A DNA stretch of 64,000 bases, from NCBI GenBank assembly GCA_973895155.1, contig OZ316898.1, positions 11,555,187 through 11,619,186 on the forward strand, written 5' to 3'. The notes below the pieces were generated by a model. The model worked only from the letters and a program-made list of their open reading frames with translations. It made no database searches and was not told where the DNA came from. This document shows, piece by piece, positions 3,001 through 62,875 of this stretch. The translations under genes and the position numbers were made by a program. The stretch's first letter is position 1, and every line of letters begins with the position of its first letter. This DNA is from Marsupella aquatica. Taxonomy: Eukaryota > Plantae > Marchantiophyta.

Positions 3001-3331
3001 GTTAAAGTACTCTGAATCCCCCATGAGTAGTTAAATTTCTACTTTAGCGTCTTTGCTTTTTGGACGTGCTTCTCTCCTGGTACCGGCCTCAACCAGTCCT
3101 CTCGGCACCATGACCTTCGGTTCACCCCGGTGCCGACCCCTTTTGCGGGCCACCCTTGGTGTATGCTGGCTTTTTGAATGAAATTAAATTAGTTTTTCAG
3201 AATAACAAGGGAAGTTGAAGTCATCTGCAGATCTGCTGTTAGTATTTTACTCCGGATCATATGGCCAAAGCTTCATATTAAGATGTATGCACATGCAGTC
3301 GAATGTGTATCTTGGCAATTTGTCGTCCATC

Positions 3332-3479
3332 TGTGGACATGCAGGAGGGACAGTACAATATCTTGACAAATTGTAGGTTAGATATTCGTCCGCCCCTCCT
3401 TAATGTGGACATGCAGGAGGGACAGTACAATATCTTGACAAATTGTAGGTTAGATATTCGTCAGCCACTCCTTAATGTG
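3332..3479. repeat. Tandem duplication of a 72-bp unit (2 copies)
   Basis: tgtggacatgcaggagggacagtacaatatcttgacaaattgtaggttagatattcgtc... occurs twice head-to-tail; it shows as a 24-aa repeat in the 3303-3596 ORF. Confidence 0.9.
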
Positions 3480-24644: not shown

Positions 24645-26016
24645 TAAGCTATAATACAAGGTTGCGTCCTTTTATAGGGTGGTCATCATTCAAATATAGA
24701 GTGTCCAAAAAAAGATTCCAGCAAAAGAGGAAGGAGTAAATAAAAGATAATAAAGTTTAGTGTGAATGAAAGGGGAAGGAACACTCTGTAAAAAGGAAAC
24801 AAATGAGGCGATGAAAAAGGGAAATGATTAGTAAATAAGCCGATGCAAGCACAAGGATCAATGTAGATCCCTCTACTTTCCATCAATGCATAAGTGAGAA
24901 CAAGATGTTGTTTTCAATGCAAGTCAGAAATGTACTACTTATCTTCCATAGTTTTGTGATAATTATCAAAAACTATAATACACTATGGCACCAATTTACA
25001 CCATGGTCATCTTTCAAAATTGCCGGGCCATTTTGGGTGAAAAATTCAAAACCGGAAAAAATTGAACCAATAAGACCAAAAAAACTCAAGTGGAAACTCA
25101 AACCGTCACTTGGATTGCAGTGCCGCAAAGTCAGCACCAAGCCGCTGCAAGTCGCGAACCCCCCCCCCCCCTCGCCGGCGGCTAGCGCTGCCCAGCTCAG
25201 GCCGCCCACACTGACTGGCTGGCTGGCTTGGGGCAGGGCTGGCTGGCTAGCACCGCCCTCTGCCTCCCAGGCCCCCTTTTGCCTCCCCACCTCACGGCCC
25301 CTCCTCCCGACTCCCTCCTGCCCCTCCTGCCTCCCAACCCCGCTCTCCCCGGCCTCTCGCCCTCTTGCCTCTCTAACCCCTGCTCTCCCCTTTTGCCCCG
25401 ACTCTCCCTCCTTGCGCTCCCCCACTCAACCCTAAAACCCTGCCTCGATGACCCACCCGATCCCCGCCCTCGCCCTTGCCTGGACTTGGTCTTGCCCTTG
25501 CCTGGACTCAGTCTCGCCCTTGGACTCTGTCTTGCGTTTCGGACTCGGACTCATGCGTAGACCGCCTGCTAGACCGAGGACCAGGTTCCTACTGGGTTTT
25601 TTTTGTCCTCGCGCATGGAGGCCGGTCTGACAAAACGCAACAATCCTCTGCTCTAACTCATCTCCAAAATTATTGGAGTTTTGTTAGTTAAGAACATATT
25701 TTACTTGACAACACCTTTTACTAACAATGTCTCATTACTTACCCACATATTTCAATTGGCGTAACCACATCTTTGACATAATGTCATCTTTTTAATACTT
25801 AACAGCATCTTTTATGCCACAGTATTTTACCTATTAACAACATCTTTTACGCCATGACATCTTTTACACAATGACATATTTTTACTTAACGGCATCTCTG
25901 ACGCCACTACATATGTTTACTTAACGACATCTTTTATGGAAAATTATACACACAGGTATTGAGCTATTAACTTCTATAATACAAGGTTGCGCCTATTTTG
26001 CCGTGGTCGTCATTCA

Positions 26017-26303
26017 CTCGGGGGGTTAACTAAGTGTATATTTTGGGGTACCACGTGCGATCCTAGCCTAATATAAATAGACCTATTTTATAAAGAAAAT
26101 ATTCCAAGAATATTCTCTATTTTCAATATTAATAACCTATTTTGCTTTATAAAAGGTATATATTAGAGAATATTCTATAAACATGAGTTTATAATACCTT
26201 CTTTTGCCTCCTACGCTTTTAAAAAATTTAGTTAAGTTCTATCCAAAATACCTATTTTGGATCGCACGTGGTTCCTAAGATTTTTTATAGTCAACCCCCC
26301 AAG
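26017..26303. mobile_element. MITE with 8-bp TSD (hAT-like by TSD length) nested in the second Helitron unit
   Basis: TSD GTCATTCA at 26009-26016 and 26304-26311. TIR CTCGGGGGGTTAACTA / TAGTCAACCCCCCAAG, with sub-terminal inverted CCACGTGCGATCC / GGATCGCACGTGG. The empty site is visible in the first Helitron unit (about 24681-24695). Confidence 0.85.
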
Positions 26304-27189
26304 GTCATTCAAATTTACGGGGCACAAAAAATAAGAAATCTGGTAGAAGGAAGGAATATAAAGAAATAAATTTTAGTTTAGTATGAATGAAAAAGAGTCA
26401 CCCCAATGTCCAAGTAGGAGGAATCAAGTGGGACGTCACTAACACAATGCACAAGGATAAGGAGAAAATATGGTACATACTCAATAAGGTGTAGATATTC
26501 AATAGAGTTAGATAGTGCATAGTTTAGTGTAATATTGGTAGGAGTTAAATTTCAGATATTATTTTAGTCAATAAGGGACTGCATACACTAATCAAATAAA
26601 ACAATAATTCTCCCAATATTTAGGATGATTTTTTACATTCATTTTTTGTGTCATTTTGAGTGCCAAAAAAACAATTATAAGTTCTAAAGACATAGTAAAG
26701 ATCATGGCACTGGCGTTGATGGCAAGGTGTCGGGCGAGGGGCACACTTTTACTTGACAACATCTTTTTACTTCACAATATCTTTCACATAACGAACCATT
26801 TGGCACCACATCATCTTTTTATTCATGACATCTTTCACATAACATCTTTGGCAAAATGACTTCTTTTTTGTTAGTTACGCCAATTTTTTACTTGACGACA
26901 TGTTTGGCAAAATGACTTCTTTTTTCTTAACGACGTCTTTTACTTGGCAACGGGCTTGACAACGTCTTTCACATAACTACATCTTTGAACTGGCAAAACA
27001 ACTTTATTGTTCTTTAACAACATGGTTTACTCCGCGGCATCTTGGGCGACACGACATCTTTTGTGCAACGCACCGGTATTGAGCTATTTTATACTTAACA
27101 ACATTGTTATATTTAACAAAACCTTTGGCGTAACGCGTTACGGCAGCATTGGCAACACGACCTCTATTTCTTCCACAACCTCTTGGCCG

Positions 27190-27560
27190 AGATGACATCT
27201 TCTTCTCAACAACCTCTTGGCCTACACGACATCTTTTGTTCTCATCGACTTCTTGGGCGACACGACATCTTTTGTTCTCACCAACATCTTGGCCAAGATG
27301 ACATCTTTTGTTTTCAACGACATCTTGGATGACACAACATCTTTTGTTCTCAACGACATCTTGGGCGACACGACATCTTTTGTTCTCAACGACATCTTGG
27401 GCGACACAACATCTTTTGTTCTCAACGACATCTTGGGCGACACGACATCTTTCTTCTCAACGACCTCTTGGTCAAAACGTCATCTTTCTTCTCAACAACC
27501 TCTTGGCCGACACGACATCTTTTGTTCTCAACAACATCTTGGCCGTCACGACATCTTTTG
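27190..27560. repeat. 36-bp minisatellite (ttgggcgacacgacatcttttgttctcaacgacatc)n inside the Helitron 3' region
   Basis: About 10 variably diverged copies; produces 12-aa periodic ORFs in several frames. Confidence 0.9.
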
Positions 27561-27917
27561 TGCAACGCACGGGTATTGAGCTAGTATCTCCATAATCCTC
27601 CATAATTCAACTGCTTCTTGTAAACAAAGCTCCAAGAAAATCAACAGGAGGATTGCATATTTATTTTAGTGTTTAAACTTAGATTCTATTGTCCCCGTTT
27701 CACCTTTAACCTCGAGTCTAACATGGGTCAATCTGGACCTAAAAACATTAGATAGTTACAAAAGAAAATACCATCTGAGTGCAAGACAGGTTTCTTTTGT
27801 GGTCCATCCGGGTTACTTGGGTCCATCGGGCTTCTTTTCTAACGTTGAGGCTCGTCACCAAACAAAAAAATAGTTTTCATAGTATTGAAGGCGACCCCCG
27901 GAACTCTGGTCTCCGCT

Positions 27918-27941
27918 AAACCCTAAACCCGCAAAACCCTA
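27918..27941 (+). promoter_or_regulatory. Telo-box elements (AAACCCTAA, AAACCCTA) upstream of EBP2
   Basis: AAACCCTAA at 27918-27926 and a second AAACCCTA nearby. Telo-boxes are typical of plant ribosome-biogenesis gene promoters. Confidence 0.65.
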
Positions 27942-28153
27942 GTACAGAATCGCTTTGCAGACTCGTTTCTAAGCTTTCTTTCGTGCAGAGAGCTTTCTAA
28001 ACCCTTTCGCACTGCTTTGCCTCTCTTCGCGAGCTGTGACTGAAATCAAGCTTTCCTCTCCGTATTCAATTCGATTCTTTGCTCAACGACAGCCCTCCCA
28101 TCAATCGCCCGTTCGCTGATTGCTTAGAATCGCACCGAGACGCGAAGAAAAAT

Positions 28154-29416
28154 ATGGCCGATCCGGAAGAATCTGATTACTCAGAGAGCGGGGAGTCCGA
28201 CGAGGACAATTCGTCTTCCGATGAGGAGGAGCAGCACGAGAGGCCCGTAAAGGAGCCTCGCAAGGACGCCGCCTACAACGCTGTCGGGCTCCACGAGAAG
28301 CTCGAGGAGATCGGGTGGCCGGAGGACGTCGACTGGCTGCACTCCCTCGCCCTCACGTACCCTGATAATGGTGCCGCCATCGACGTCGATGATGATTTGC
28401 AGCGAGAGATGTCGTTCTACACTCAGGTCAGTCTCCCCTCACCCTCCCCTGTCCTCGTGCTGCTTACCGACAGATTTTTATGTGTCCTGAAGGTCTTAGA
28501 GTGGATTTGGATGATCAGAACAAATAATGCAAACGAATGCGCCAAATGTTACTCTCTAGAATTTGTCCAGAGACGATGCTTTGAATACTTTCATATATCA
28601 ACGCTGTGACGTTCGCAGCATCATCTATTCTCCCTGCACTTCCAAAATACACATTTGATACGCTCAACGTTAGCAGTGATTGTCGGTTTCCCTGGGAATG
28701 ATGAATGGTGGCATTTCTGAACGGAATGGATTGCAATGCAGGCACTGGAAGGGGCAAGGGAAGCTTATCAGAAGTTCCAGGCTCTTGGGATTCCTTTCCA
28801 GAGGCCCACAGATTACTACGCTGAGATGGTGAAAACCGACACTCACATGCTGAAAATTAAGGACAAGCTCCTGCAGGAGAAGTCGAAATTGGAGGACATG
28901 GACGAACGCAAGAAAGCTCGCGAGTCCAAGAAGTTTGCCAAGGAGGTGCAAGCAGAGAAGCTGAAAGAGCGGTCCAAGCGAAAGAAGGATGACATCGAGT
29001 CGGTGAAGAAGTGGCGAAAGGTCCGGCAAAAAAGCGGGTTCACAGAAGGAGGGGATGACGCACCTCCCATCGAATTTGACACGGGGAGGGGAGGCAAGCA
29101 GCAAAATGGGAATAAGTTCTCAGGGGGGCGGGGCCGGGATCGGGACCGTCAACCGTCAAAGAATAGGCAATTTAGGAATGAGAAGTATGGTAATGGAGGT
29201 AGGAAGAGTAACAAAAGGAATGACGCAGACTCTTCTGCTGATGACAGCACGTTTCAAGCGAGTTTCAAAGGTAGAGATAGAGGTTCTAGTAGAGGGCGGG
29301 GAGGAGGATCGTTCCGGGGGCGGTTTGGCAGCAGGGGTCGAGGTGGCCCAAGTAGGGGTCGAGGTGGCCTAAGCAGCAGGAGCTCTAGCCGTGGCAGGGG
29401 CCGTGGCAGGGGCTGA
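28154..29416 (+). CDS. EBP2: rRNA-processing protein EBP2, 2 exons, RGG-rich C-terminus
   Basis: Exons 28154-28426 and 28742-29416 (GT-AG, phase 0). Motifs IDVDDDLQREMSFYTQAL, PFQRPTDYYAEMVKTDTHMLKIK, KKFAKEVQ and KYGNGG. Acidic N-terminus. Confidence 0.95.
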
Positions 29417-30122
29417 ATTTGAAGAGCAAGGCTTAGGCTTTTGTAAATCAATGATTTCACTATGTTCGCGCCAACAAAATCGGTAGATTCATTTTTCATC
29501 GAATCTTCCCAAAAAATTTCGTTCTCTTCTTGTTTCAAGGATTCGTCCTTCACTTCCCTGCAGTGTTTCACCTTCGCTTATAATTATTCACCCGCGTACT
29601 TTGTGTCTTATATTTCCACCAAGTGTTTCCACCAAGTGCATGACTGTTAGAGGTTCCTACTCAAATTGGTCAGTGGACGACTTCCCTTCCTGCAGGATGT
29701 CTCATCCATACCCCTAAGACGTTTTGAAGCTGGCCATGAAGAGACATTTGAAGGCAACGCGTGTGTATTCTATTGATCCTTTCCTCTCCTTGGCTGAAAG
29801 TGGATATGCTGAACCACATGTGTTCTTGTGTCTTATTCTTGCTGCCTGCATTGCAAAGACTAGCGCACCACAGTCCAACGTTTTGGGTGTCTTTTGTTTG
29901 TACTACTAGGAGTAATGACCTGCAAGATTCGTGTATGTCATTCAATGAGCTGCATCGTTTTATTAGCTCGAGGCCATATGGAAGCACTTGCAGAGGAAGG
30001 TACTGTATTCGTGTCTGTCATTGAATAAGCTGCATCTTCTCATTAACTCCAGCCCATATGGAAGCAATTGTAGAGAAAGATACTGTATCAGATACTGACC
30101 TTCCTGATCGCAATGTTTTCAT

Positions 30123-30707
30123 TCACGACTTACCTACCATTGATGACTTATACGGCATCATCACGTAACTAGAGATATTCTCTTTTGATTTCTTTATGCA
30201 TTCAACACCTGCCCGATGTCTGAACTCTGTAGTCTTTCTCTCGACTACCAAGTGCTTCTTATCTCGAGCGTCAAATCGTCTGCAATTGAGCTTGGGAAAA
30301 ACAAAACTAGAAATTAATTCACCAATCTCGTTATCTGATCCTCCTGTGTATTCTCTCCCTGGGTGCCAAGCGTTTGTTGTTCTCGACAGGTAAACCTTCT
30401 GCAATTGAGATTGCTGAAAACTGAAGTAGAAAACTCATCATAGATAACACTGCCTGATTCAGCTAGACGCTGCTACTTCAATCGAGTGCCTCCCCAGCAT
30501 AAATAGGACGGTACCTTCAATCTGAGTCTATCGGATGGCCATGGAAGCCCTGGAACAGCAGCTCGAATGTAGGAGGGAGGAGCGAAGCACAAAGCTAATT
30601 AGATTCCCACACTCACCTAGAATGTGGAAAAGAAACCACTTTGCAAACTCCAGATCTCCCTTGTATTTCGCATACAGCTCCCTTGCATCTCCATGTGACA
30701 TCGGCAT
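30123..30707 (-). CDS. Putative spliced J-domain-like protein (HPG instead of HPD); may be partial or a pseudogene
   Basis: Joining 30707-30617, 30549-30515 and 30398-30123 (GT-AG introns of 67 and 116 nt, phases compatible) gives ...FHILGLPWPSDRLRLKKVYLSRTTNAWHPGRE..., resembling DnaJ helices I-II and the loop. Confidence 0.4.
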
Positions 30708-30749
30708 CACCAGATCCACAGATCCAGTACCATTCTCTCTTTGAACGTT

Positions 30750-31152
30750 TACTTGACATTCAAACCTTTTCTCCATTTTCCCATCTTGGACCGCATTAAC
30801 ATTCAAGCCCGTTTTGCAGTGACCTACTTGCATAAAACTCCATTGCAGTGACTCACCCTCACCCCAAAATTACACTTGACATTCAAATCTATTTTTCTCT
30901 TCTCCACCTTGGACCTCATTAACATGCAAGCCCATTTTGCAATGACCTATTTGCACAAAACTCCATTGCACTGACTCTCCCTCACCCCCAATTTCACTTG
31001 ACATTCGAATCTATTCTTTCTTCCCCACCTTGGACCTCATTCACATTCAAGCCCGTTTTGCAGTGACCTACTTGCATAAAAGTCCGTTGCACTAACTCAC
31101 CCTCACCCCCAATTTCACTTGACATTCAAATCTATTCTTCTCTTCCCCACCT
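30750..31152. repeat. Tandem array of a ~122-bp unit (about 3.3 copies)
   Basis: ttgacattc recurs at 30753, 30876, 30998 and 31119, with conserved cagtgacctacttgcataaaa...ccctcacccc. Confidence 0.9.
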
Positions 31153-32973
31153 TACGCCCCTAGAGTTGTGGTATAGAGGCTTTACTGTAGACCTAGGTCT
31201 TCTGCGTGAGCTTTACTAGTAAGATGGAGGAGAATCTTACTAAACAGATTATTCAGATCTTGACCAGGCATTAGAGTTGTACTCAAATGTACATGATGAA
31301 ACTCTGAAAAGTAGTTGAGATAAGTAGTAGTTGAGATAAGCCCCAAAAAGTGTCACGCGAATTGCTCCCCTTAAGCTCTTAACTCAACCAAACTCTGGTT
31401 GGGTTGACTAAGTACTCCACTCTGAGACACTCCAGAGACTGCTGAAACTAAACAAAGCATCAAACACAATGAAATTACCCACTAGCTCACTCCACACTGC
31501 TGAACACAGATGAAACAAAAAGACTTCCTAACTAGCTCAACTAAAACTAAACTGCAATCCCGATTGACAATTTTGCAATTGAAATGGAAATGTTGATATG
31601 TTTGTGATGATCTCCACTATTTGGCCAGATGATTGTAGTGTGCACACAGTTTTGGAGACTACTAATATTGGTGACTTCTTGGCTACATAAGGTGCTATCA
31701 TTTATGCTGCCAAGGAGGAGTTGGTTGATGCGGTTTGTGGAGGAGCCGTGACTATAGCATTTATTAGTTTTGATGGAGGCTGTCCCTAAAGTCAAAAGCA
31801 TATGTTATATGCAAATTGTGCACGTTAAAAGTGACTATGATTTGTCTAGATGTATGGCTGTGTGGTAATTCACTTGAGACTCATAGGTCTAGTGTTCAAA
31901 TGTTGTAATTAAGTGTTCCTTTTCTTTGGGGTTTCACAGATTTCCCTTTGAAATTGAAAAAAAGGTGACTAGTTTTTGTGAAAAAGGTGACTAGTTTTTG
32001 TGAAATTGCTATTATGAATCTTAATTACGGACCCCACTAGAGGTTCCTTCCAAAATTCCTGGCACCACAGCGTGCCACGTCAGCAACAACCGCAACAAAC
32101 AAGAATGGTCATGTTTGCGCAACGAATAAACTCCTCTCCATCTTGTTTACGTCGCTTTTCGTGTAATTTTATGGACGCCATGCCGTCAAAACATAATGTA
32201 AAAGTAATTAAAAGTAATTCATCCAAATCTATTGATACAAAGGGCAAGATTAAAAACATTCACCCATATTCTCTTTACTTAAATTTATAAATGTTTTTTT
32301 GTAAAAGTAAATAGTGATCAACTTAAACAGTAACCGTATTCCTGTGTAACTGCCGAAATAAAACCGTCAGAACAAAAGAAGCACATCAACATTTCGAAAG
32401 GGAGGAAGGCTTTTGATGAAAGTAATGAAAAAAGAGGAAAGCTCGAAAGGAGTTTTGCCTCTTGAAGTGCAAAGTAAAGAGGAATGCTGAAGAAACAAAA
32501 TCAAAAACGATCAGAAGCCGAATGAAGAAAGCAAAAATGAGAACTGATCGAGGACAGAAAAGAGGCGCAACACATCTTAATCAGAAACAAATAGATCGAG
32601 CAAAAAGAAGGAGAAGCAAAGAGAATCGATAAGGACATCGATAAGAGCATCGATAAGGACATCGATAAGGACATTGACTAGCAACGAATGCAGGTCAAAA
32701 CTCTAATCTATACACGACAGGAGAGGACAGTAGCCATGCACGACAGGGGAGGTAATTGCTTACGCAGGGCATGGCCTGGTGACGCATTTTAGCAGTAGAT
32801 TCACCTTTGTGCGATGTTTGATTCGAGAACATGTCAATTTATTGTACGCCTGCTGCTTTCAGTATTTCTTTTGTTTACCGCACTCCATTTGCTCCGAAGT
32901 CCGAGATGAAAGCATGTCAATTAAATCTTCCCCTTCTGCCTTCCTTTCAACAATAATTAAGTAATGTTTCCAT

Positions 32974-34151
32974 TTACTCCTGAGTCTGAAGATGAAAACA
33001 TCTCGTCAAGTATGACGGACGCGCGTGGAGATCGACCAAAAGCTTACATATGTTTCTCAACGCTTTTCCAACTCCTTCATCTTGGTCTGCAATATACCAA
33101 ATTTTGCACTTTCTGCTGTACGAGAACTTTCTGATTCCCTCGATCAGTTCTTGCGTGCGCTCTTGTAGCTTCTTTTCTAAATCGGCCACACGGACCCGGA
33201 GTTCATCTTGTTCCTGCGTAAACCTTCCTTCAATTCTTTCGTCTGGAACATGATTCTCTGAATGTCAATTCACCCAGAGCCTTGTGATGAGATGAATTTG
33301 AGTGAGAACAAACAAGCCAAGTCAGACAGTACTCAAAATTAGGACTCGAGAAATTACGGAACCTTCTCGACCTTAATTAGCTCTTCCGAAAGCTGCAGGA
33401 GAGAAACAAAATCGGGAAAATGCAATCGCCAATGTCAACTATATATTAAATATTGACCTTTGATTGATTGTGTTCACAAAACGTGTGAGTGCAGTTCCAA
33501 TTAATTACTTTTACACAGCATGTTACTAACCGCGGTTTGTAGTGGAGGTCCCTAGTCTCACCAGTTCTTGCTGATTGAGTTTGATGTTTCCATAGACTAA
33601 ACCCAATGTCTGATTGTGAGCATAGAAATTTACTGTCGGCATTGAAGAGGAGTAAAGGTCGGTTTACAATTCTGCACATTGAAAAACCTCGTTTCATCTC
33701 CCCTGCCGTGTGCTGAATTGCGCAAAGCAGTAGGGAAGTTTAGTTTTGTGTTCCAAATTCCAATCAGGACTTCACTGTTTAATTTCCTTGTTTAATAAAA
33801 TGATCGGCTTTGCCTTTGTTTTGTAACTTTTTCAATCTGCTTTCGACTCAAGTTTGTGGATATTAGATTAATTTTGAGCAGCAGGCAACACTTCGATTGG
33901 AAGCCAATCCATGTCAACCAAAATTGGTGTTGAATTGAAACTGGTTGGAATCATGTCACAAAGCATTAATAAATAAGATATCAATGTCGCGTGAGAATTT
34001 AGAGTCACTTATAATCTGCATCATTCTGCTCTAGAGACTCCTTACAGATACACATTCGGCCCTTACCTTTGTTGGTGGCTCTTAACTTTACTGCGCCCTG
34101 AGATTTCCCACCATGTTTTTCCAGATAGATTTTTTTGTTCGAGTGGGCCAT
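32974..34151 (-). CDS. Putative 4-exon coiled-coil orphan protein (about 129 aa), possibly decaying
   Basis: Joining 34151-34067, 33596-33562, 33392-33363 and 33213-32974 (all GT-AG, phases compatible) gives MAHSNKKIYLEK...LNQQELLSEELIKVEKEQDELRVRVADLEKKLQERTQEL..., with a heptad pattern. No family recognised. Confidence 0.4.
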
Positions 34152-35074
34152 ACACGATCGGGGCAGAGAAGAGCTGTAAGGCAGCGACCTGAGCAGAAGA
34201 AAAAGGCAAAAGCAGATCGATCGAACAAGGTCAACTTTCTTATGAGCACCTCCTTGTCAAACACACTGAGTAATTAATTGTCATTCTCGGGCGAGAACTG
34301 TAAATATGTGGAGTCAAGTTAGGAACGATCTTGTCCTCAGCATGGAGTCAGTGCTCAATAATAGACTCTTTGCCCTTGGGGACTGTAATATGATGTGCTT
34401 TCAGGAATTGAAGTCAGCAACATACACTTTCACAATCATTTATAGCAAAACTTGCTGACGACGTCCACTTGGCAATTGCAATGCTGTCCCTAAACTGGCA
34501 CCTCAAAATTCATGTTCAGTGTCAAGTAGTTTGGCCAAGACTTACACCAAAGCGCCTATGATTAGGGCATTCACCATTTTTTTCCTTCACAAGCAAGGAA
34601 ACTAACTTATACTATACATCAAATAGCTACAGTTGAAATGCCTCCATGTATTGAGATTCTATAGCCTTGAACTTAGCGACCTCCCACAAGCCGATCTTGA
34701 AAGGAGAGCAAATGAACAATCGTCTCAATTAAGCTGGCCCAAAAAAGTCATTGTAATGCATCACAGTCGAGTTCCTGCGAGCCGAAGGTTTTTGGTAATC
34801 GAGACTGATCTTGAAAGGAGAGCAGATGATCACAACTCAACTTCAAAATAGTAAACACATTCAGTCCTAGTACAAGAACTCAATGGCTAAACACCCGGCG
34901 AACTAAAAAGGAGTAACACACGACAGCAGTTCTTTAACTTGGGCTGCTGCCATATCACAGCATAGGACAAATCCTTATTTCAAGGAGGCCAGAATCATTA
35001 CAGACAGTAGCAATCTGCATGTAGAGAAACCCTACCCATACTTAGAGCCTATAATTAGACTGAAATTTATAGTC

Positions 35075-36940
35075 AGATGTATTTTATAGGCTAGGCTATC
35101 TTACTAATAATTTTCAAAGCTACGTAAGGCCTATGGTCTAGAGTTAGCAACTCCCAATAAAGACAAAACTGATAATGAGTCTTTAATAATCACACAACTT
35201 AAAAAATGAAGATAAACAAAAAAAACAGTATGGGGGAGGGTGAACAAAGAACTATATGGGCAAAGATGAACCCAAATTAAAGCATACTTAGAATTGTTTG
35301 CGTGCAAGCTCTTTCTTTCTACATATCTCTACTTTCAAGGAACCTTGGGTAAGAGGCCTAGTTAGTGTAACTTACTACAGGTGGACACTTTATCTAATGG
35401 AAAGTTTGTTTGATACTCACACAAGTCTTCTTGCAGAAAGGGCATGCTGTGTAAGCCGACTTACTTAATGTTCGGGAAGTTGGATGTGAGTTTTCAAGTT
35501 ACCTAGAGAAGTGAAGCTCCGGATAAGTTAAACAGCACTTCTACATACAGGTTTGCTGTCTCCTGCATCAAGTTCTTCCTGCTTTTTGTGTGGTCCCTAA
35601 CATGATTATTGAACGCTAAACTCCTTGCTATTTTCTAATATAATTTGGTTTTTTAATTTGGCATTTACTTTGTTGCGGTCCTTTTAAGACGGTTTAGTTT
35701 GCTTCGAATCCGGACCAATTCCAAATCATAGCCATGTCTGAATTGTGTTTTGTCATTACAATTTTGAATTGCAACAAAGATCCTCACTTCGTAAACAACA
35801 TGAAATTAGATTGACACCTGAAATAAACTTAAATGAGTCACAATTTTATGTGAGATGTATTTTATAGGCTAAGCTATCTTACTAATAATTTGCAAAGCTA
35901 CTTAAGGCCTATGGTCTAGAGTTGGCAACTCCCAATAAAGACAAAACTGATAATGAGTCTTTAATAATCACACAACTTAAAAAATGAAGATAAACAAAAA
36001 AAACAGTATGGGGCAGGGTGGACAAAGAACTAGATGGGCAAAGATGAACCCAAATTAAAGCATACTTAGAATTGTTTCCGTGCAAGCTTTTCTTTCTTCA
36101 TATCTCTAGTTTCAACGAGTCTTGGATAAGAGGCCTAGTTAATGTAACTTATAGAGGTGGACACTTTATCTAATGGAAAGTTTGTTTGGTACTCACACAA
36201 TTTTTGCAGAAAGGTCATGGTGTGTCGGCCGACTTACTAAATGGTGTTCAGGAAGTTGGACGTGAGTTTTCAAGTTACCTAGAGAAGAGAAGCTCCGAAT
36301 AAGTTAAACAGCGCTTCTACATACAGGTTTGATGTCTCCTGACTTTCAAAAAAACAGTATGGGGGAGGGTGAACAAAGAAGTTCTAGATGGGCAAAGATG
36401 AACCCAAATTAAAGCATACTTAGAATTGTTTCCGTGCAAGCTTTTTCTTTCTTCATATCTCTAGTTTCAACGAGTCTTGGGTAAGAGGCCTAGTTAGTGT
36501 AACTTATAGAGGTGGACACTTTATATAATGGAAAGTTTGTTTGGTACTCACACAAGTCTTCTTGCAGAAAGGGCATGGTGTGTCGGCCGACTTACTTAAT
36601 GGTGTTCGGGAAGTTGGACGTGAGTTTTCAAGTTACCTAGAGAAGAGAAGCTCCGAATAAGTTAAACAACGCTTCTACATACAGGTTTGCTGTCTCCTGA
36701 CTTCAAGTTCTTCCTGCTTTTTGTGTGGTCCCTAACATGATTCTTGAACCCTAAAATCCTTGCTATTTTCTAATATAACTTTTCGCTATTTAATTTGGCA
36801 TTTACTCTGTTGCGGTCCTTTAAGACGGTTTAGTGTGCTTCAAATCCGGACCAACTCCAAATCATAGCCATGTTTGAATTGCTTTTTGTCATTACAATTT
36901 TGAATTGCAACAAAGATCCTCACTTTGTAAAGAACATGAA
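35075..36940. repeat. Tandem array of a ~780-bp unit (1 full and 2 partial copies)
   Basis: agatgtattttataggcta at 35075 and 35853. A third copy restarts at about 36348 (aaaaaacagtatggggg) and is cut off abruptly at 36940 by a T-run and (TA)n tract. Confidence 0.92.
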
Positions 36941-37237
36941 GAATTTTTTTTTAATATATACATATATATATATATATATACAAATATATCTTTATATTGA
37001 CTGAGTATTAAACCTATATAATTCATTAGATCACTAGCGTCCTCCACCAGCATAGTGTCCAAACGCAAGACTTGATCCCGGTTGGGATCATTGTCTTGGA
37101 CAAATTTCTTGATTCGGCTAACATGGTAGCTTTTGCCCACGCCCATTTACTTGTGGGTTTACGTGGGTGTCTCCAACACCACCTAAACCGTATTATCTTT
37201 GTGGGCCTATCGTGTGAATGATGCGATAGGGTTTCGC

Positions 37238-38185
37238 ATACCTAGGAGAACTATACCTTGATTGGTAATTATTATGTTAGTATTGCTCTAACCGAACCCT
37301 AGAGCGGCACGCTTAGAGATGTGTAACGTAAATGAGCTTTAGGGGTGATACCCAAAACTGGGAGAACTATGCCTTGACTTGGTACAAGTCTTGGAAGAAG
37401 TTTCAAGAGGACTCCTTGCCGTTAACTTGGGAAAACCTAGTTGAGGGTCTTCGTGCTCATGTCACCACTAAGTACCTAGAGCGGCACGCTTAATAGAAAT
37501 GTGTAACGTAAATGAGCTTTAGGGGTGATACCCAAAACTGGGAGGACTATGCCTTGACTTGACCGTACAAGTCTTGGAAGAAGTCGCAAGAGGACTCCTC
37601 CTTGCCGTTAACTTGGGAAAACCTAGTTGAGGGTCTTTGTGCTCATGTCACCACTAAGTACCTAGAGCGGCACGCTTAGAGATGTGCAACGTAAATGAGC
37701 TTTAGGGGTGATATCCAAATGCTAATCACTTATTATCAAAACCAGTTGGTGTGTATCCCGACGGGGCAAGAGACACTACATACACAACTGCACAACTTTA
37801 TAGTGATTCACGTGTGGCGCCATGGGTCATCAAAGTAAGGATTGTTCCACCAAAGGTGGCAAGCCGAGCGGAGATGGAGGGCAGAAGGGCATTAAGTAAT
37901 GCTCTAACCAAAATACCTAGGAGAACTATGCCTTGACTTGGTACAAGTCTTGGTAAATGAGCTTTAGGGGTGATATCCAAAATCTCATCACTTATTATCA
38001 AACCAGTTGGTGTGTATCCCGACGGGGCAAGAGACCCTACATACACAACTGCACACCTTTATAGTGATTCACGTGTGGCGCCATGGGTCATCATTGAAGT
38101 AAGGATTGTGCCACCAAAGGTGGCAAGCCAAGCGGAGATGGAGGACAAAAGGGCAATAATGTAAGTATTGCTCTGACCGAACCCT
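37238..38185 (+). pseudogene. Scrambled, tandemly amplified Ty3/gypsy-like Gag fragments
   Basis: 37332-37493 translates MSFRGDTQNWENYALTWYKSWKKFQEDSLPLTWENLVEGLRAHVTTKYLERHA, the A-x-x-W...TWExLxxxLR pattern of retrotransposon Gag. Later modules read LITYYQNQL...QLHTFI and APWVIIEVRIVPPK. A ~180-bp unit and a ~262-bp unit each occur twice, with small indels. Confidence 0.6.
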
Positions 38186-38262
38186 TAGTAGTTGATGAGG
38201 TCCCTGTAGGGGATATGCCTATCAAAGAGAAGGTGTTGTTGTGAGAGAAATTACGTAAGGTT

Positions 38263-38560
38263 ATGACTATAAATCCTAACAAGCCAATTTTTGTGAATGT
38301 CACAAGTTCTAACGATAATCTGGGTGTTGCGTTGGTGGATACAGGCGCGGGCGCCTGCTTCATGAGTGGCATCACCTTCGAGTAGTGTTTATGGCATGAC
38401 CTTTGAGTAGTGTTTATGGCATGACTTTCGGGTAGTGTTTGGCGCTTTGCTAACTTGGGTTGGAGCCAAGCAACCAACTCTTCTTGGTAACTACAAGATC
38501 GTGATAAGCAAGACTCGTTTCTGAAATTTCATTGAGCGAATTTTGGATGGACCCTAGCTA
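38263..38560 (+). pseudogene. Retropepsin-type aspartic protease relic
   Basis: MTINPNKPIFVNVTSSNDNLGVALVDTGAGACFMS, with DTGA at 38338-38349. It is followed by stops, a 25-bp tandem duplication and a DSFLKFH*ANF segment resembling the protease C-terminal motif. Confidence 0.7.
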
Positions 38561-38605
38561 AGAAAACTGACGAGTCCATAATCCTTTGCATAGGTCTCCC
38601 CAAAA

Positions 38606-41600
38606 ATGTCACGGCGTACAATGTCCGAGAAGAGACATGTCGCATGAAGGCGTGCAATAAACACCTGTGCCGAGTCACTAAGTCCGTTATGTCAAGGATG
38701 GGCCTCAGCCCCATTGTATCTCCAAGAATGGAGAGAAGTCTGCCAAAAGACAATCCAAGGCATGAAGGTGTGCGGGATGTGCGGACTAGTTCGATACGGA
38801 AACACTCCGAGGATCGACAAGACATTCACCACCGTACCAAAGGTGAACATGACGCCGTACGGCATATGCAACGCATTTGTCAACCAGTACATTGAGAACC
38901 AAGATGGAACAATCAACGTGTGCATGACTTGCGTGCGAAACCCTGCCCGTATCCAGATAAACTCCTTCATATCTCTGCAATATGCGATCGACATCCTAGC
39001 CGCGAAGCCGTTGTACATGCAATTGCTCTCGCTAATCGACTGTCGACTAGGCATCATACAAAAGTACAATGGCTTCCACTCTGGCTTCTACAAAAAGGAA
39101 AGCCTCCTTGACAACCCGCTCATATCCTGGAATCTCGACACGCTAGAGTGCAATAATCGAGAGGAGATCATGCGACAGATATACAAAGTCATGGAACTCA
39201 ATTTGACGACCAACCAACTTTTCAAAAGATACGTTTCATTGGTCGAACTACCAGACCCGTCACTGGGACTGTGCATCCTAAGTTCCGACGGAGTAGAGAA
39301 CATCATCAAAGACAAGAGGGCAAAGGGAATAACCACGAGATCCATGAACTTTGACCCATTCGACCCCGACCTGCACATCCTCCAAGATGTGCATTACCGG
39401 ATCCTGACTTCACACAAGCGCAAGTACCAGGTCTTTCGTTCCGGCACCGTGTACGACCGCAAGAGAATGTGCTCCGAAGAGAGCGTCAACACCAATGCGG
39501 AAGGACTGTCAAACGATCCACAATTGACATTGGAAAATGCAATGTTCCCGTTCTTGTTCGTCCACTCGAGGGGTTTCCATCGAGGACAACTCAGCTTGAT
39601 CGACTACATGAAACGAAGGACACAACAGTTGTTCAGCATATTCACTTTGTACAAGCCGTACATGCTTATCATGTACCAATTGCGACAGGCCAGCCAAGTA
39701 GCAAGCATGAGCAGGACGATAGTAATCGACAAGGAATACATGCAGATCAAGGAGAGGTGCCCCCACTTTAGCGAGAAGGAAATATACAAAATGCTGATAA
39801 AAAAGACAATCACGCAGGCCGTTCCTGGGAGCCCGGCATGGCACGGAAGACACCTCGACGACCTCAAGTGCATGGTGAGAAAATGGGGACTGCCCCACTT
39901 CTTCCTCACGCTCACTTGTGACGAGATCAGCGACATCCGTTGGCCTGAGATCGCCGACCTCGAGAACATTGTGAAGAGGATGAATCCGACCTTCTCATGG
40001 AAAGATTGTCCTGTCGAATGCGCCGTGCTCTTCCACGAACGAATCCAACGTTTTTTCAAGGATTACATTTTGTCGAAACGCGCCATAATTGGAAATGTGA
40101 TCCACTACGTCATCAGGTATGAGTTGCAGGGCCGCGGATCACTCCATGCCCACACGGTGCTATGGGTCAAGGATTGCGACGTCGATCGAGTCACAAACGA
40201 AATTGCCGCATTCATCCCTGGCAGATTCGACTTGACATCCGGCAGATTCGAAGAGCCGAATGGACTTGAAGAAAAGACCCTGTATCGCAACGTCATGACG
40301 AAACAACTTCACTACTGCAAGGAGGGCTTGTGCTTGCAAAGGCATTCCCAAACCGGCCTCAAGTACTGCAAGTTGGGTTTCCCCCAAGAAACTCACCTCG
40401 ACAAAGATGTAGCCATCAACCTCGCCACGGGGAAATGGAGGTACCACAGGCCAAGTGACCACCACCGAAATGTCGTGCCATACCACCCGCTCGTGTTGCT
40501 GTTGTGGGGCGCGCACATGAACCTGCAGCGCGTCACAAACGCGGCTTGGTCATTCTATTTGCTCAAGTACGCGATCAAATGCGAGCCCCTGGGATCACTC
40601 CAGCTCAATGCGAACGATGCGCGCATTCTAGGACTCGAGGACCTGTCTGAAGTCCAACTCAAGCTCGTCAGCGGAGCCGTCCTGTCTCGGAGCGTGTGCG
40701 CCACGTAGGCGGCCTTGACGTGCCTCAAAATCAGCATCATCCATCGCTCGGAGACTGTGGCGTTCATGGACTCGTCGCCTCCGGAACTGAGGTCCGCCAT
40801 CTACCGTAAGTCCTCGGGGATATGTTTACATCCCACCAGACTCTACGCACAGAGGCCCGAGGACATGTTTGCACTGTCCTTCTACGACTACTTCATCAAC
40901 CACGAGGTCCTCACCAATAAGAAAAGCACCACCAAAGACTACGTCAGCAGGGATTTGCAAGGCAATTTCGTGTATCGGACGGATCGGCTCGTGCGATTTT
41001 CGGAGTATCATCCAGTATACAAGATGAATGGCTTCTTCTACAACTACCTCCTGAAGGTCGTGAGATTCCATGCAGAAGGCGAGATTCTCCTCAGGCCCAT
41101 AAGCGAGACGTGGAGCTACTTGCACGAGTGCATACACCGCAAGTTGATAACCAGCGTCGACGACGTGCACAAGTTGGTGCTTGAATATTGCGCATCGCAC
41201 CTCTACTCCACCCACCACACATCCCACCTGCTCCAGGAGCTGAACGAAAAGCTTCCCCACCAAATTTTCAACGACGCGGCCACATTCCAAGCGGCCCCCA
41301 CCGTCACCGTAGAGAAACCGATCGGTGCGGTGCTCAATGACAAAACTCTCCCTACCGTCAACTTGACTCTGGACCAAATCAGAGTGTTTGAGGCACTCAA
41401 GGATGTCAAGAGCGGTCTGTTCATGATCGATGGAAATCCGGGATCCGACAAGACTTTCTTCATCTCTTTCATGAACAAATACTGGACATATAAAGGGAGG
41501 AAGGTGAAGATGTGTGCCACCACGGGCGCGGCTGCCATAAACCTTAACGCCGACGCGGTGACAATGCATTCCTTGTTCAGCATTCCAATACACGGAGAGC

Positions 41601-42730
41601 TCAGGCCTCTGCACATCACCAGTTCCCAATACCACACCTTGAGGAACAATGACGTGTTCGTCATAGACGAGGCGAGCATGCTGACACCCAAACTGTTGCG
41701 TTGCGTCTCCACAAGACTACACGAGACACTCCAAGACGAAGACCGCTCGTCCGACCCATTCCAAAATAAGATGGTCATCCTGGTCGGAGACATGTGCCAA
41801 TTGCCTCCGATTTGCACCCACCACTCCAACGACATATGCAGGTCATGCCACCTCTCGTCGTAGCCATATTTTGAGACCATGCGGAAATTTCACCTCAGCA
41901 CTGTGCTCAGACAGAGCACAGACCGGGAGTTCATGGAGTTCCTTAACAACATCCGCACAGGCCTCCCTACCCAAGAATCGATCGATGAGTGCCTGGGACG
42001 ATGTTACGTGTCCAAAAAAGAAGCCCATGATTTCTTCGACGCCTCGACGACCGTGATATGCACACATAGGGAAACAGTCGACAACTACAACGAACGGGCA
42101 TTACGGAGATTTTTTCCACGCCAAGAGATCGTGCCCGTCCCAATACTCACCAATGCCCCTTCAGACGAATCCACCTGGCCTTGGATACAAGATCCCTCCT
42201 TCCACACACTGACGAACGTTGCAATCGGATGCAAGGTGATTCTCACACACAACATCGACCTCTCTAAGCAAGCCGCGAACGGCAACGGAGGAATCGTGGA
42301 GAAAATCACTACAGAAGCCGAAGGCAAAATGTCGATTTTTGTGAGAATGTCTTCCAACCACTGCCTCGTAAAGATCAACCGCACGGTTCACGAGAACAAG
42401 TTCATCTCGGGACAGCAAACCCATCGGAAATCCACTTTCCCTCTCATGCTCGGATACGCCATAACAGGTCACAAGAGCCAAGGTTGCACACTAGCGGGCA
42501 AGGTCGTGCTAGAAATAAACAGTGCATTCACACCGGGACTGGTGTACGTTATGTTGAGTAGGGTCACAAATAGAGCATCCATGCGCATTGTTGGAGATCT
42601 TACGCCGCCGGACTTCAAAGTGTTCCACTTACCAATTCGTCGTGTTCAACAAGCAGATGTCGACCACCAAAGGCAACAAGGCAGTGAAGGCATCACAACA
42701 ACAACGAGAAACGATGGCAGGCGCAAATAG
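38606..42730 (+). pseudogene. RepHel transposase (HUH Rep plus Pif1 SF1B helicase), about 1374 codons, intronless, 3 in-frame stops
   Basis: ORFs at 38714, 40715 and 41879 share one frame, which extends to ATG 38606. Stops: TGA 38645, TAG 40706, TAG 41861. Rep motifs FFLTLTCDE, YELQGRGSLHAH, YLLKYAIK. Helicase motifs GNPGSDKT (Walker A G>D), VIDEASM, GDMCQLPP, LRQ, GYAITGHKSQGCT, YVMLSRV. N-terminal CxxC...CxxC. Confidence 0.93.
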
Positions 42731-43526
42731 CAATCCGACGAGCGCTACTCCTACAACAGTTCAGGTAAACGGTGTCCACTTCATACTTCACATTGTTGAT
42801 GCAAGCGATATATAATGAAATGATGATACAAAAGTTGCAAGATTCATTAACATTGACGGGCACTATTGTTCTAACACATTGTTCACGTCTTTCCTGTGCA
42901 GCCCATGACAGCCGTGGAGATGGCAAGGATGATCATGAGAGAGCTGCCGTCGGATGACTTCCGGACTGACGAGGAGGTAACGGCTAAACAAATTGCTTTC
43001 GGCAACGGTCTCGGAATCGAGACAACTGAGATGGTGAACGGGATCAAGAGGAGAGATCTGTCGAAGATGATCGAGGAGAGGAAAGTGTTCAAGGCCGACT
43101 TCTACGATCATTACGGAGATAAACCGGCGACCGGTAAGCACAAAGAGAAAACCCCCAATAAAAAATGAATTCAACCATCTCATGCACACATTAAGCACTA
43201 ACTCCGTGTTGAAAACAAATGCAGGTGTCATGAAGGAGATTCTTAGGTACATGGCAGTTCCGTTCGAGGAAGACCAGCTCACTTACAAGGACGGGATGCG
43301 TGAGTACATCCAGGTCACAAAGGGAGCTCGTCTAGAGCAACTGACTAGACTGAGGCATGATTTCAAGATGCCACTTGATATGTTGGTAGGGCTGACACAT
43401 CAGCAATCCCAGTCCCTGATCGACAGGCTGAGAAGGAGCAACGACCAGGGGCTGCTATCTGACGTCCCTGCCCAAACAACAACGGAACAACCCACCACAT
43501 CCAAGCGGAAATTCAACGCGATGTGA
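42657..43526 (+). CDS. Intact 3-exon orphan accessory gene (213 aa) overlapping the RepHel 3' end
   Basis: Exons 42657-42764 (CAG|GTAAAC), 42902-43133 (TGCAG| ... G|GTAAGC) and 43225-43526 (TGCAG|). Phases 0 and 1 match; 642 nt with no internal stop; AT-rich introns; C-terminal SKRKF (NLS-like); AATAAA at about 43608. Confidence 0.75.
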
Positions 43527-44513
43527 CAGTTGTTTCCGTGATGTAGTACAAGTTTCATTTTTCAGAACAATGTGGTGTATCATGCAAAAACAAATTATGA
43601 CGAGTTCCAATAAAAATAGTCATTGCCGGAAACATATTTATCTATATCAAAAATAACTATCTACTTTTTAACACATTTTTTATCTGTATCAATAACTATC
43701 CAATTTTCAATCTCAAAAGAATAAAAACAGGTAGGGGTCCACGAACTAATTTGCTATACCTTTACTTCTACGCATATTACTCTGATATAGCTGCCCTAAA
43801 CTCTACACAGATACCGAGTCTACAATCTTAAATTCGTTTTCAATATATTTCTATATTTTTAAATTTTTGGGGGAATTTATATCAATCCAGTACCATAGCT
43901 TAGCTTGCCAACTAGGTATATACACTATACCTTTACCTGGCAGTATAAGAAAACCCTATACCCGCCCAACTTTGATTTGGATCTTGAGTCAAATGAGGGA
44001 CGATTCACCCTCTATTCTTTTAAAACACAAATCGAAAGAAAAAATCACAAAGGGCATATTGAGTTACGGTGGTTTGACAGTGTAAGCACTGTCAAGTTCT
44101 GTTTGTCATCAGTCCCTCCTAAGGTACGTCGTGGGTCTTCCTCCGACCACACACAATTCCTCGATCGCACTGCATTCCTTCATTTCATCTCGTTTGGCGT
44201 GGGAAGGGAAGCTCGTCTCGACGTGGCGCTCAATCGACAACGCGGGGAACCTTGCCATCGAATTTAGCATAGTTGTACTCTCTCGTCTTTCGTCTGGTGG
44301 ATTTGATGGTCGTCCTCTTGGCTTCTTAGGCGGTGCAATTCTCGAACTCCATCTCCAGGTGTGTTTTCATTGCATGCTCTTGGTACCGTGTTGTTGGTGT
44401 GTTGACGGTTAGTTCGTGGTGAAGATTCGGAAGTCGTGTTGGTTGTGGTTTCATGATTTGTGGCTTGGGGTTGCTTTGACACAACTATCGGAAAAGAAAT
44501 TGCGCTTCCATCG

Positions 44514-45052
44514 GAGGGGAGACTGACCTGAGTGTCGAATGACATCTCTCGCTGCAAATCATCATCGACGTCGACCGCTATCAAGGTAGTGATGGCGAGG
44601 GATCGACGTTGTCCGGCCACCCGATCTCCTCAAGCTAATCGTGAAGCCCGACGGTGTTGTAGGGGGCGTCCTTGCGAGGCTCCTTGACGGGCCTCTCGTA
44701 CTGCTCCTCCTCATCCGAAGACGAATTGTCCTCGTCGGACTCCCCGCTCTCTGAGTAATCACATAATCTTCCAGATCGGTCATATTTTTCTTCGCGTCTC
44801 GGTGCAATTCTAAACAATCAGCTAACGAGCGATTGACGGGAGGGTTGTCGTAGAGCAATCAATCGAATTGAACACGGAGGGGAAAGCTCGCTCTTTAGTG
44901 GGGCGAAGAGCTCGCGAACAGTGGTAAAGCAGTGCGAAAGGGTCTCGATACGAAAGAAAGCTTGGAAACGAGTCTGCATTGCGATTCTGTTCTACGGTTT
45001 TGCGGGTTTAGGGTTTAAAGGGAGACCTCAGTTTAGAGGTGTCGCCTTCAAT
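44514..45052 (-). pseudogene. Inverted, frameshifted duplicate of the EBP2 promoter, exon 1 and intron start
   Basis: Reverse complement matches 27884-28440 (telo-box, DYSESGESDEDNSSSDEEEQ, VDVDDDLQREMSF, CAG|GTCAGTCTCCCCTC). Indels break the frame. Confidence 0.93.
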
Positions 45053-45836: not shown

Positions 45837-47355
45837 AGAGTGTGCTTCCAGCTTTCTGAATACTATTTTGTCGTAATTATATCTTTGAGAAGATTCAAGG
45901 CCCTTTGCTAGAATATAGGCTTACGGTAAAAAGAATTCTAGGTACCTAGAGGACTGTGAAGTATGTGCTTCCATCTAGGTCATAGAAGCATTCCAAATTT
46001 CTTTGCTCGCATTCATCATAGATAAACTTCTCTTATGCATTGTGATGTCGATTGATCCTTGACAGGTCTAACCGGAGCAAATGGATTAGCGTAGAGCTAT
46101 TGAAGTGGCAATTTTGCGATTCTTCTACTGACTCGGAATGGCAGCTCAGAGCAGCTCAAAGTCGCTGTATATGAGTGCCCGCTGTCTCAGTCTCTGGACT
46201 CCAAATCAATTTCGTTGTGGTGGGTGCCGCTATTTCTCTCTGAGACTGGCTAATCATTGAGGTCATCTTACAGGCATAAAGAACAAATTCAGTACGAGAC
46301 AAGCAAATAATCTTCTGGTTTCATTTCTAGTGTGCCCACGATCATCTGAAACCAATTGTATGGGCTTCAAGCTCCTGCTACCTTCTTGAACCGATGTCGT
46401 TCAGAAATAAAGTGTTCTAGTCGTTGAATATGAATGTCTATGAGGAAATAGCCACGATGAATAACTCTCCGTAATTTCATCTCAAGTAGGATGTTGGAGC
46501 TGGCAGTTTAAAATTCCTCTACCTGATCCTGAGGAAATTACTCATAATTTTTCATGGTTGAGCTTATTGTTTGGAGAAAGACGAGTGAGTCAAGGTCAAG
46601 CAAAATGGCTACATATGGTGAAACGCAATTAGCAAATAGCTAGTAATTGTCCATAGGCACAGTAATCGTCAATGTTTTGTTCCACCTCACGAAAACAAAG
46701 TGGCTATTGTCAATACATATCTGCACATTGATATTGATAGGCTACTTCATCATTCGGTTCGTGAGCAACGGTTGGTTTCTCACTTGCGCTATCGTAATAT
46801 TGGGTAGTTTGGGGTTTGGGGGACATGTTAGTAAAAACTTTTTCATAATAAAACAAAAGCAGTTGCATCTCCTGTTGTCAATCCAGCTCTGCTTGTTGCA
46901 AAGGGTTCCGCAAATGCTGAGGGCAGCTTTCCTTCAGGGCTGCCACATGCGAGTTGGACCTTATGATGGGACTTTCATCCAGGCCTTTAAACTCAATGGG
47001 ATGCCAAAATGCTCTTAGTATGAAATCAACTTTTTCCTACATTAAATCTATGTGATCCAAGTTAAAATGTATGTTTCATGCCAAAATGCTCTAAGTATGA
47101 AATTAACTTTTTTGTACATTAAATCTATGTCCCTCAAGTTAAAATGCATGTTTCATCCCATGCACACTCAAGATCCTATCTGATCAGAAGTTCGGGAAAG
47201 AGATTTCATCCCCACTAATAGCTCACTGGGGAGGAGATGTGACTCATTTCGAAATGCTGCTATAGTGTGTAAAAGCTTTACAATCTCTCCCTAGTTATGG
47301 AAAGAAGTTAATATTACCCTGATTAAATGAAGGATTGTGGCCACAGTAGACTGGC

Positions 47356-47390: not shown

Positions 47391-47700
47391 ACCAGTGTTT
47401 TTCTGTAGTGTCCAGTTCTTGCAAATTCAAACCCAAGATTTGAGCTGGCTATCTATACAAAGCGGAAGAAATGAGATTTACTGGGATTGCCAAAGTTCTT
47501 ATTCCTTTGAGGCCCAGGTCACTGCATACAATGGCACTCCTAAATATCCAGATTTGACTGTGCATGCTTCTCCACGAAAGAGAAGTATCATAAAGGGCGT
47601 TAAGAATATAGCATCATCCTGTTTAGAGGGCATTGTGTGCCATAGTGCTTTGAAAAAAAGTGCTTTTGCTAGAGTGTCAAGGGTCTATTGTTGTCCATAA

Positions 47701-47895
47701 TGCTTTGGTAAGAGTCCATTAAGGCACTTAAAGGCTTAAGAGATTTTTGTTTTACTGATTGTAGTACAAGTAGAGGAGAATCTTCATACTAAGGTGATGC
47801 TTTGGTAAGAGTCCATTAAGGCACTTAAAGGCTTAAGAGATTTTTGTTTTACTGATTGTAGTACAAGTAGAGGAGAATCTTCATACTAAGGTGAT
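47701..47895. repeat. Perfect ~97-bp tandem duplication
   Basis: tgctttggtaagagtccattaagg...catactaaggtga occurs twice, adjacent to the SINE head. Confidence 0.92.
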
Positions 47896-62579: not shown

Positions 62580-62875
62580 AAAGGGGCCCTATTAAGTCCC
62601 AAGTGCATCTGGTGGACTATTAAGTACACAAGATGCTAGAGGGGTCTTTTTAAATCCAAACTTGTAAGTGGCACCAGGGGCCCTATTAAATCCCAAGTGC
62701 ATCTGGTGGACTATTAAGTACACAAGATGCTAGAGGGGTCTTTTTAAATCCAAACTTGTAAGTGGCACTTGGAGCTATATTCTGGAGCCTGTGGACTATT
62801 AAGTATACAAGATGCCAGAGGGGTCTTTTTAAATCCAAACTTGTAAGTGGCACTTGGAGCTATATTCTGGAACCT
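62580..62875. repeat. Tandem array of ~85-95 bp units (3 copies)
   Basis: ggactattaagtacacaagatgctagaggggtctttttaaatccaaacttgtaagtggcac is repeated three times. Confidence 0.88.

Follow-up and report, generated by a model that had tools for sequence, protein, structure and literature searches.

Helitrons transpose by a cycle in which an HUH-Tyr domain nicks one end of the element, a Pif1 helicase peels off the strand, and a circle forms that is then inserted elsewhere. On the retrotransposon side, TR-GAG and other non-autonomous gag-only long terminal repeat (LTR) elements encode Gag and protease without reverse transcriptase (RT), and they keep LTRs and an intact gag open reading frame (ORF). 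Among the Helitron-like elements (HLE), the HLE2 group (Helitron2/Helentron) has been reported in land plants including Sphagnum, with DUF6570 as its marker (PMC11417382), and PMC4067079 gives a serine in Rep motif 2 as diagnostic of Helentron/Helitron2. Bat Helitrons are reported to carry retrotransposon pieces (PMC4224331), capture in maize is described as stepwise (PMC3288121), and PMC8788227 gives background on Helitron variants. Here we analyzed a stretch of 64,000 nucleotides from the liverwort Marsupella aquatica (contig OZ316898.1, positions 11,555,187 to 11,619,186; hereafter the window), in which pieces resembling Gag and protease stand in front of a Helitron gene encoding Rep and helicase (RepHel). 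A sequence-only reading of this locus had proposed a Gag-protease structural module, carried either by a chimeric, possibly particle-forming transposon family or by a one-off event in which a fragment of an LTR retrotransposon was captured or nested. We found that the upstream pieces are not a Gag-protease module. Judged by homology, they derive from the Gag-Pol of an ordinary Ty3/gypsy retrotransposon, and it is likely that a Helitron captured this debris as passenger DNA and likely, too, that the debris was multiplied with the element in several copies. Capture of retrotransposon pieces is known Helitron behavior; the arrangement is real but ordinary.

The region up to the end of RepHel is composed as follows, donor residues being those of P0017, a full-length relative of the donor retrotransposon.

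37037 to 37241, minus strand: probable inverted Ty3/gypsy integrase C-terminal tail fragment, bearing a YHVSRIKKF motif and cut immediately ahead of what resembles the start of a chromodomain
37242 to 37805, plus strand: capsid-region Gag fragments (donor residues about 257 to 342) in three partial tandem copies of about 180 bp, 57 to 66% identical to P0017 by tblastn
37807 to 37896, plus strand: CCHC zinc knuckle, copy 1; loose ends of the donor type occur at 37803 and 38067
37917 to 38066, plus strand: second set of capsid fragments (donor residues about 257 to 266, then about 307 to 342), frameshifted
38068 to 38369, plus strand: zinc knuckle copy 2, linker and retropepsin N-terminal stub, with two stops, DTG at 38338 and a break at 38369
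38367 to 38620, plus strand: three 25-bp tandem repeats and spacer, the RepHel upstream region, whose depth at 38418-38615 is at the RepHel level and not at the donor level
38621 to 42730, plus strand: Helitron RepHel pseudogene, 1369 codons in one frame from the ATG at 38621

The resemblance of the upstream pieces to retrotransposon proteins is beyond chance. Three-frame translation located the ALTWY...PLTWENLVEGLR, QLHTFI and ALVDTGAGACFMS (38329-38367) peptides where they had been reported, and for the main pieces tblastn against a natural Gag-Pol gave E values between 3e-28 and 2e-16. A profile built from seven donor relatives scored the window at a domain E value of 2e-39. Pfam recognized zf-CCHC at 37810-37896 (23.3 bits, with a cut-off of 20.8) and, weakly, Ty3_capsid at 37332-37490 (E = 0.044). 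The segment thus shows homology to the Gag, the zinc knuckle and the retropepsin of gypsy elements. One peptide of the sequence-only reading, PWVIIEVRIVPPK (PWVIIEV...), turned out to be zinc-knuckle DNA read off-frame, the correct frame being FTCGAMGH.

When the knuckle-protease piece at 38068-38369 was searched against 1.84 billion representatives, five matches were recovered. The best, P0012 (phmmer E = 9e-14, 49% identity), carries zf-CCHC and the start of a gag aspartyl protease; the other four (P0013 to P0016, E = 3e-6 to 6e-5) are long proteins with many stretches. With P0012 as the query, six longer relatives (P0017 to P0022) were found among 5695 candidates. Five of these six contain RVT_1, none contains a Helitron domain, and three are named Calypogeia fissa, a liverwort, by NCBI. 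The order of domains in P0017 (zf-CCHC, RVP_2 protease, RVT_1, RNase H, integrase) is that of Ty3/gypsy, and the window pieces share 44 to 76% amino acid identity with the six relatives (44% between the knuckle-protease piece and P0017 residues 457-555). Judged by eye, the donor is probably of the chromovirus type.

Compared to such a donor, the window holds very little. Only 185 distinct residues are present (P0017 about 257-342 and 457-555), and these are duplicated, out of order and spread over two frames, whereas about the first 256 residues are missing. The Gag fragments at 37242-37805 contain stops and are preceded by short shuffled bits, and zinc knuckle copy 1 does not share the reading frame of the capsid piece to which it is joined. 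A frameshifting deletion of about 114 residues (donor 343-456) lies in front of both zinc knuckles. The RVP_2 match in P0017 spans residues 526-632, and the window protease ends at donor residue 555, about 30 residues into a domain of about 107 and shortly after the DTG. The retropepsin motif previously pointed out therefore stands as a DTG stub matching P0012 and P0017, but it is cut off, has no Pfam match of its own and is identified only through these relatives. In 37037-38620, the longest stop-free stretch on the plus strand is 74 codons, and no open frame with a whole capsid and a whole retropepsin was found in the window. The gag/protease scraps are thus predicted to make neither a capsid nor a protease.

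Self-BLAST, repeat and tblastn analyses found no RT, RNase H or LTR pair in the window segment and no target-site duplication, in agreement with the sequence-only reading, which had however also missed a probable integrase remnant lying just outside its start. This inverted piece, at 37037-37241, is by its minus-strand motif presumably an integrase C-terminal tail, and the loose ends at 37036/37037 in two public sequencing runs (X2 and X5, see below), read by hand, begin with an acidic, chromodomain-like EVEAI. The locus accordingly differs from a liverwort Ty3/gypsy element (Metaviridae) in its lack of LTRs, RT and RNase H and of the collinear domain order seen in P0017, and from TR-GAG elements in having neither LTRs nor an intact gag ORF.

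RepHel begins 252 bp 3' of the protease break. Its long frame matches the Pfam families Helitron_like_N (E = 2.6e-25) and PIF1 (E = 1.3e-18), and among PDB structures the family profile matches Helraiser best (7lcc, E = 2e-52). Two N-terminal CxxC pairs (38771 and 38921), Rep motif 1 (39899), HUH motif 2 (40106-40153), the Tyr motif (40556) and the Walker A of the Pif1 helicase (41432) can be located, and HUH Rep and Pif1-type helicase share one ORF as in Helitron-like elements. The claim of a full HUH-Rep/Pif1 ORF thus held for the domains and their position but not for its integrity: three in-frame stops (38645, 40706 and 41861) interrupt the frame, and Walker A reads GSDKT, with an aspartate where the alignment shows a glycine before the lysine in 9/9 relatives. 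Because of the three stops and the Walker A change, this copy is, to judge from its sequence, dead. Most of the depth in X1 to X4 has sense codons at stops 38645 and 40706, stop 41861 lying outside the rows listed.

We compared RepHel with the described HLE groups and with nine long relatives of 1258 to 1444 aa, recovered from 2113 candidates in a search for proteins of 1135 to 3240 aa. The single Rep-Pif1 ORF is that of HLE2, and motif 2 (Y-V-I-R-Y-E-L-Q-G-R-G-S-L-H-A-H) has the HLE2-like serine before HxH, with RGS in 10/10 aligned proteins. Unlike HLE2, the family shows no DUF6570 in 10/10 members (looked for among the 25 most-matched families at E ≤ 0.05 and in the window protein's own list), and it carries a spliced gene, orfX, and no AP endonuclease, RPA or OTU. 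Indeed, no Pfam match to the endonuclease fused in Helentrons was found, and the ORF ends after the helicase. HLE2 elements end in short terminal inverted repeats with a 3' stem-loop and a TT target; in the window we saw inverted matches at chance level only, and a TTT at the inferred end. The element does not fit HLE1 (5' TC, 3' hairpin with CTRR, leucine in motif 2): motif 2 has a serine, and no strong hairpin precedes CTAA/T at 43746-43750. The element likely works like a Helitron and likely belongs to HLE2.

Two observations concern the RepHel family at large. An X1 contig (depth 91; its shorter side covers 22 letters) joins 38558 to 42369 and skips 3.8 kb of RepHel, possibly an internally deleted non-autonomous derivative. 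The lineage defined by the S-type RGS motif 2, two N-terminal CxxC pairs and no DUF6570 occurs in contigs of 25 to 65% GC; RepHel belongs to this distinct lineage, which occurs in eukaryote-like metagenome contigs and may be an unclassified HLE subgroup.

To judge whether the arrangement is unique, we turned to public runs. Seven contain some of the stretch, and in four of these more than half is present; five (X1 to X5) were compared and two with a small share (X6 and X7) were left out. Since these data are assembled contigs, depth is only a rough guide and gives no copy number. Flank bins right of 44042 had depths of 44-64 (X1), 23-37 (X2), 79-124 (X3) and 52-135 (X4). In the same order, depths were 863-4597, 173-600, 829-2059 and 4247-9130 for the RepHel bins and 9.9-22k, 0.9-1.7k, 4-12k and 51-86k for the retro-derived bins. 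The deepest part of the region was the probable integrase tail (79,305 in X1 and 244,897 in X4). In X1, X2, X4 and X5 (four of the five runs), contigs continue beyond 38369 with other sequence, in frame as protease; these contigs and the depths show the donor to be a much more abundant element, uninterrupted at 38369.

An X1 contig identical to 37239-37327 crosses the shuffled junction at 37279 with a depth of 466, and a variant join from 37272 to 37893, which omits the duplicated 620-bp block, has a depth of 563 in X1 and 190 in X3. In X1 the two junction forms sum to about 1030, compared to 1000 for near-identical RepHel, 871 for orfX and 906-1513 for the upstream DNA. In X2, upstream contigs (156-200) agree with RepHel (164-176), and the flank stands at 23. 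Single-contig depths at 34544-34591 (1513, 156, 295 and 1306 in X1 to X4) are like those of near-identical RepHel contigs. Depths of several-fold to about 30-fold the single-copy level thus apply to the scrambled junction, to the DNA upstream and to near-identical RepHel. As this holds for the scrambled junction itself, the combination of gag mosaic and RepHel is probably amplified and not unique; capture or nesting of a retrotransposon fragment fits, but probably not as the one-off event that had been envisaged. The depths suggest a single young unit that starts left of 34500, ends at about 43750 and exists in two forms, with several to a few tens of copies. Both forms have a broken gag, and neither holds an intact gag or protease. 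The remaining parts of this unit are the following.

34500 to 36940, no strand assigned: AT-rich non-coding region, multi-copy, with internal tandem duplications (self-BLAST repeats)
42714 to 43526, plus strand: orfX, a predicted 194-aa gene of three exons with GT-AG introns at 42765-42901 and 43134-43224, frame intact and splice phases consistent
43527 to 43752, plus strand: AT-rich 3' tail, with an inferred right end near 43750 at CTAA followed by TTT

The region at 34500-36940 probably belongs to this element as its 5' arm, and the start of the element would lie further left; six-frame translation of 29500-37100 gave no Pfam match with E < 0.05. On the right, depth falls to single copy within 0.2 to 0.5 kb 3' of orfX, and window-identical single-copy contigs starting at 43723 (X2 and X3) place the branch point at about 43752. 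A search for terminal inverted repeats between 43600-44100 and 25000-38700 returned only five inverted matches of 10 bp, compatible with chance. A hairpin at 44074-44094 was rejected as the element end, as it lies in single-copy DNA. The DNA at 43753-44041 is multi-copy in the depth table although window-identical contigs are single-copy; it is a diverged tail of the element or, alternatively, another small repeat, and has a weak hairpin at 43906-43942.

The start of orfX overlaps the last RepHel codons, its GC content is 0.52 to 0.53 in the exons and 0.37 in the introns, and it is at multi-copy depth. No Pfam family matched it and no homolog was found among seven candidates of 83 to 265 aa. 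A single-sequence model of exon 3 was all-helical (pLDDT 59) and had no PDB match at E ≤ 0.001; given this low confidence and the lack of a fold match, the model is uninformative. Probably, orfX serves this Helitron family as an accessory gene, possibly a new one, spliced and with no known relative.

How could the mosaic have arisen? During rolling-circle copying or break repair, synthesis could have switched at microhomologies of 2 to 5 bp onto the genome's most abundant template, picking up the inverted integrase tail and the deleted gag/protease scraps. An intact family member would have supplied the HUH nickase and Pif1 helicase that amplified the resulting unit of about 9 kb or more, a later internal duplication of about 620 bp would have given the two forms of copies, and the window copy would then have gained its private stops. 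Helitron transduplication likewise leaves several short, truncated, non-coding fragments of genes or transposable elements in a multi-copy element; what differs here is that the pieces come from gag, zinc knuckle, protease (a stub) and probably the integrase tail, and that they stand immediately before an autonomous-type RepHel. Section 22 of PMC11417382 mentions neither gag nor retropepsin among stably captured domains, the full 20-domain list (Table S11, outside the scope of our comparison) being one that could include gag-type domains.

Several points weigh against capture by a Helitron. The multi-copy depth and its drop on the right were seen, but neither the 5' end of the element nor an empty site was found, which leaves room for segmental duplication, and the right end is uncertain because the bin at 43675-44041 is still multi-copy. 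None of the contigs listed bridges the protease-Helitron junction at 38369/38370, so that the linkage of mosaic and RepHel in other copies rests on matching depths, themselves a rough guide. Furthermore, the integrase-tail segment has no Pfam or PDB match, and P0017 ends before the corresponding region.

These points bear on a second explanation, in which a Ty3/gypsy element inserted upstream of the Helitron, or was interrupted by it, and decayed through deletions and local rearrangements; segmental or tandem duplication, and not rolling-circle transposition, would then have multiplied the block. The great abundance of the donor, the several local duplications in the neighborhood and the missing Helitron 5' terminus and terminal inverted repeat would all be accounted for. 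However, neither LTRs nor a target-site duplication were found, the order of the pieces is scrambled, with the probable integrase tail inverted and 5' of gag, and single-copy depth is reached after orfX just where a Helitron end is expected. We therefore consider nesting and decay unlikely, though it deserves some weight beside Helitron capture.

A third explanation is that intact bryophyte Helitron2-like members express Gag and protease before RepHel and package rolling-circle DNA into particles, so that a DNA transposon would have acquired the capsid of a retroelement, the window holding a decayed copy. Over the final 450 bp in front of RepHel, gag, zinc knuckle and protease follow one another on the same strand, which would agree with this, as would the multi-copy junction and the subfamily-like contig in the protease region (38226-38314, depth 524 in X1; 38238-38349, depth 185 in X3). 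Yet the first 256 or so Gag residues are absent from both arrangements, the deletion before both window zinc knuckles shifts the frame, the protease is truncated, and all six full-length donor relatives lack Helitron domains.

The relatives of RepHel argue in the same direction. None of the nine long RepHel proteins has a gag or protease domain. A metagenome scan yielded 37 related RepHel loci from 76 candidate stretches, 16 of them with an estimated 1.5 kb or more of upstream DNA (at most 9 independent groups), and the profile of the seven donor relatives found none among the 37 (best domain E = 0.39). Pfam searches of 135 of the 158 flank ORFs (23 from near-duplicate loci were dropped) found no gag, protease, RT or integrase family, and motif scans and tblastn of the 37 loci matched only the RepHel N terminus. 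In viral contigs, a Gag relative was found in 0/13 and the RepHel profile in 0/22 candidate stretches. A standard Ty3/gypsy source for the segment and RepHel copies without gag are the two outcomes that the sequence-only reading had itself named as speaking against its module, and both were largely borne out. One reservation about this survey also touches the capture reading: the 37 loci are distant relatives (27 to 46% best-segment identity) and not this species' own family, so that gag-protease is excluded as an ancestral cargo of the lineage and not as a recent trait of the family in this species. With no intact gag or protease in either arrangement, a particle-forming Gag-protease-RepHel family is very improbable.

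We know of no capsid-encoding Helitron, and intact copies, if they exist, would be the first. Titles and abstract openings in the literature covered, with subscription journals and Repbase outside its scope, describe no Gag-encoding Helitron. If intact Gag-protease-RepHel copies were real, they would offer a testable route for horizontal transfer; as it stands, the locus is a cautionary example of how gag and protease pieces adjoining RepHel can mimic a new virus-like element. An assembly artefact is scarcely credible, since the junction at 37279 recurs letter for letter in X1 and X5 contigs, even though the region is built of high-copy repeats that could have been collapsed or mis-joined, one run may be the source sample and the depth-3 contig of X5 may be a stray.

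Two of the related loci are of separate interest. In one (L010:848-2539), a PHD-finger ORF lies directly upstream of, or is fused to, RepHel. In the other (L035:33-6009), a RepHel fragment abuts bacterial-looking fumarase, NHL-repeat and glucuronyl-esterase ORFs; this is probably a chimeric contig, or otherwise a RepHel piece in a prokaryote.

In the neighborhood of the element, an inverted duplicate of 83% identity lies on its opposite sides (27884-28440 and 44514-45052), the second copy looking truncated. It would comprise a promoter and exon 1 from a gene that is presumably EBP2-like, and the flanking genes are presumably EBP2-, COX17- and glutamate-receptor-like. Left of the element, a 96-codon open frame on the minus strand (32974-33264) is coiled-coil-like and has no Pfam match. 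Several minisatellites and short tandem duplications, among them an exact 97-bp doublet, were found at 30748-31153, 27017-27583, 47001-47160, 47700-47895 and 62582-62875.

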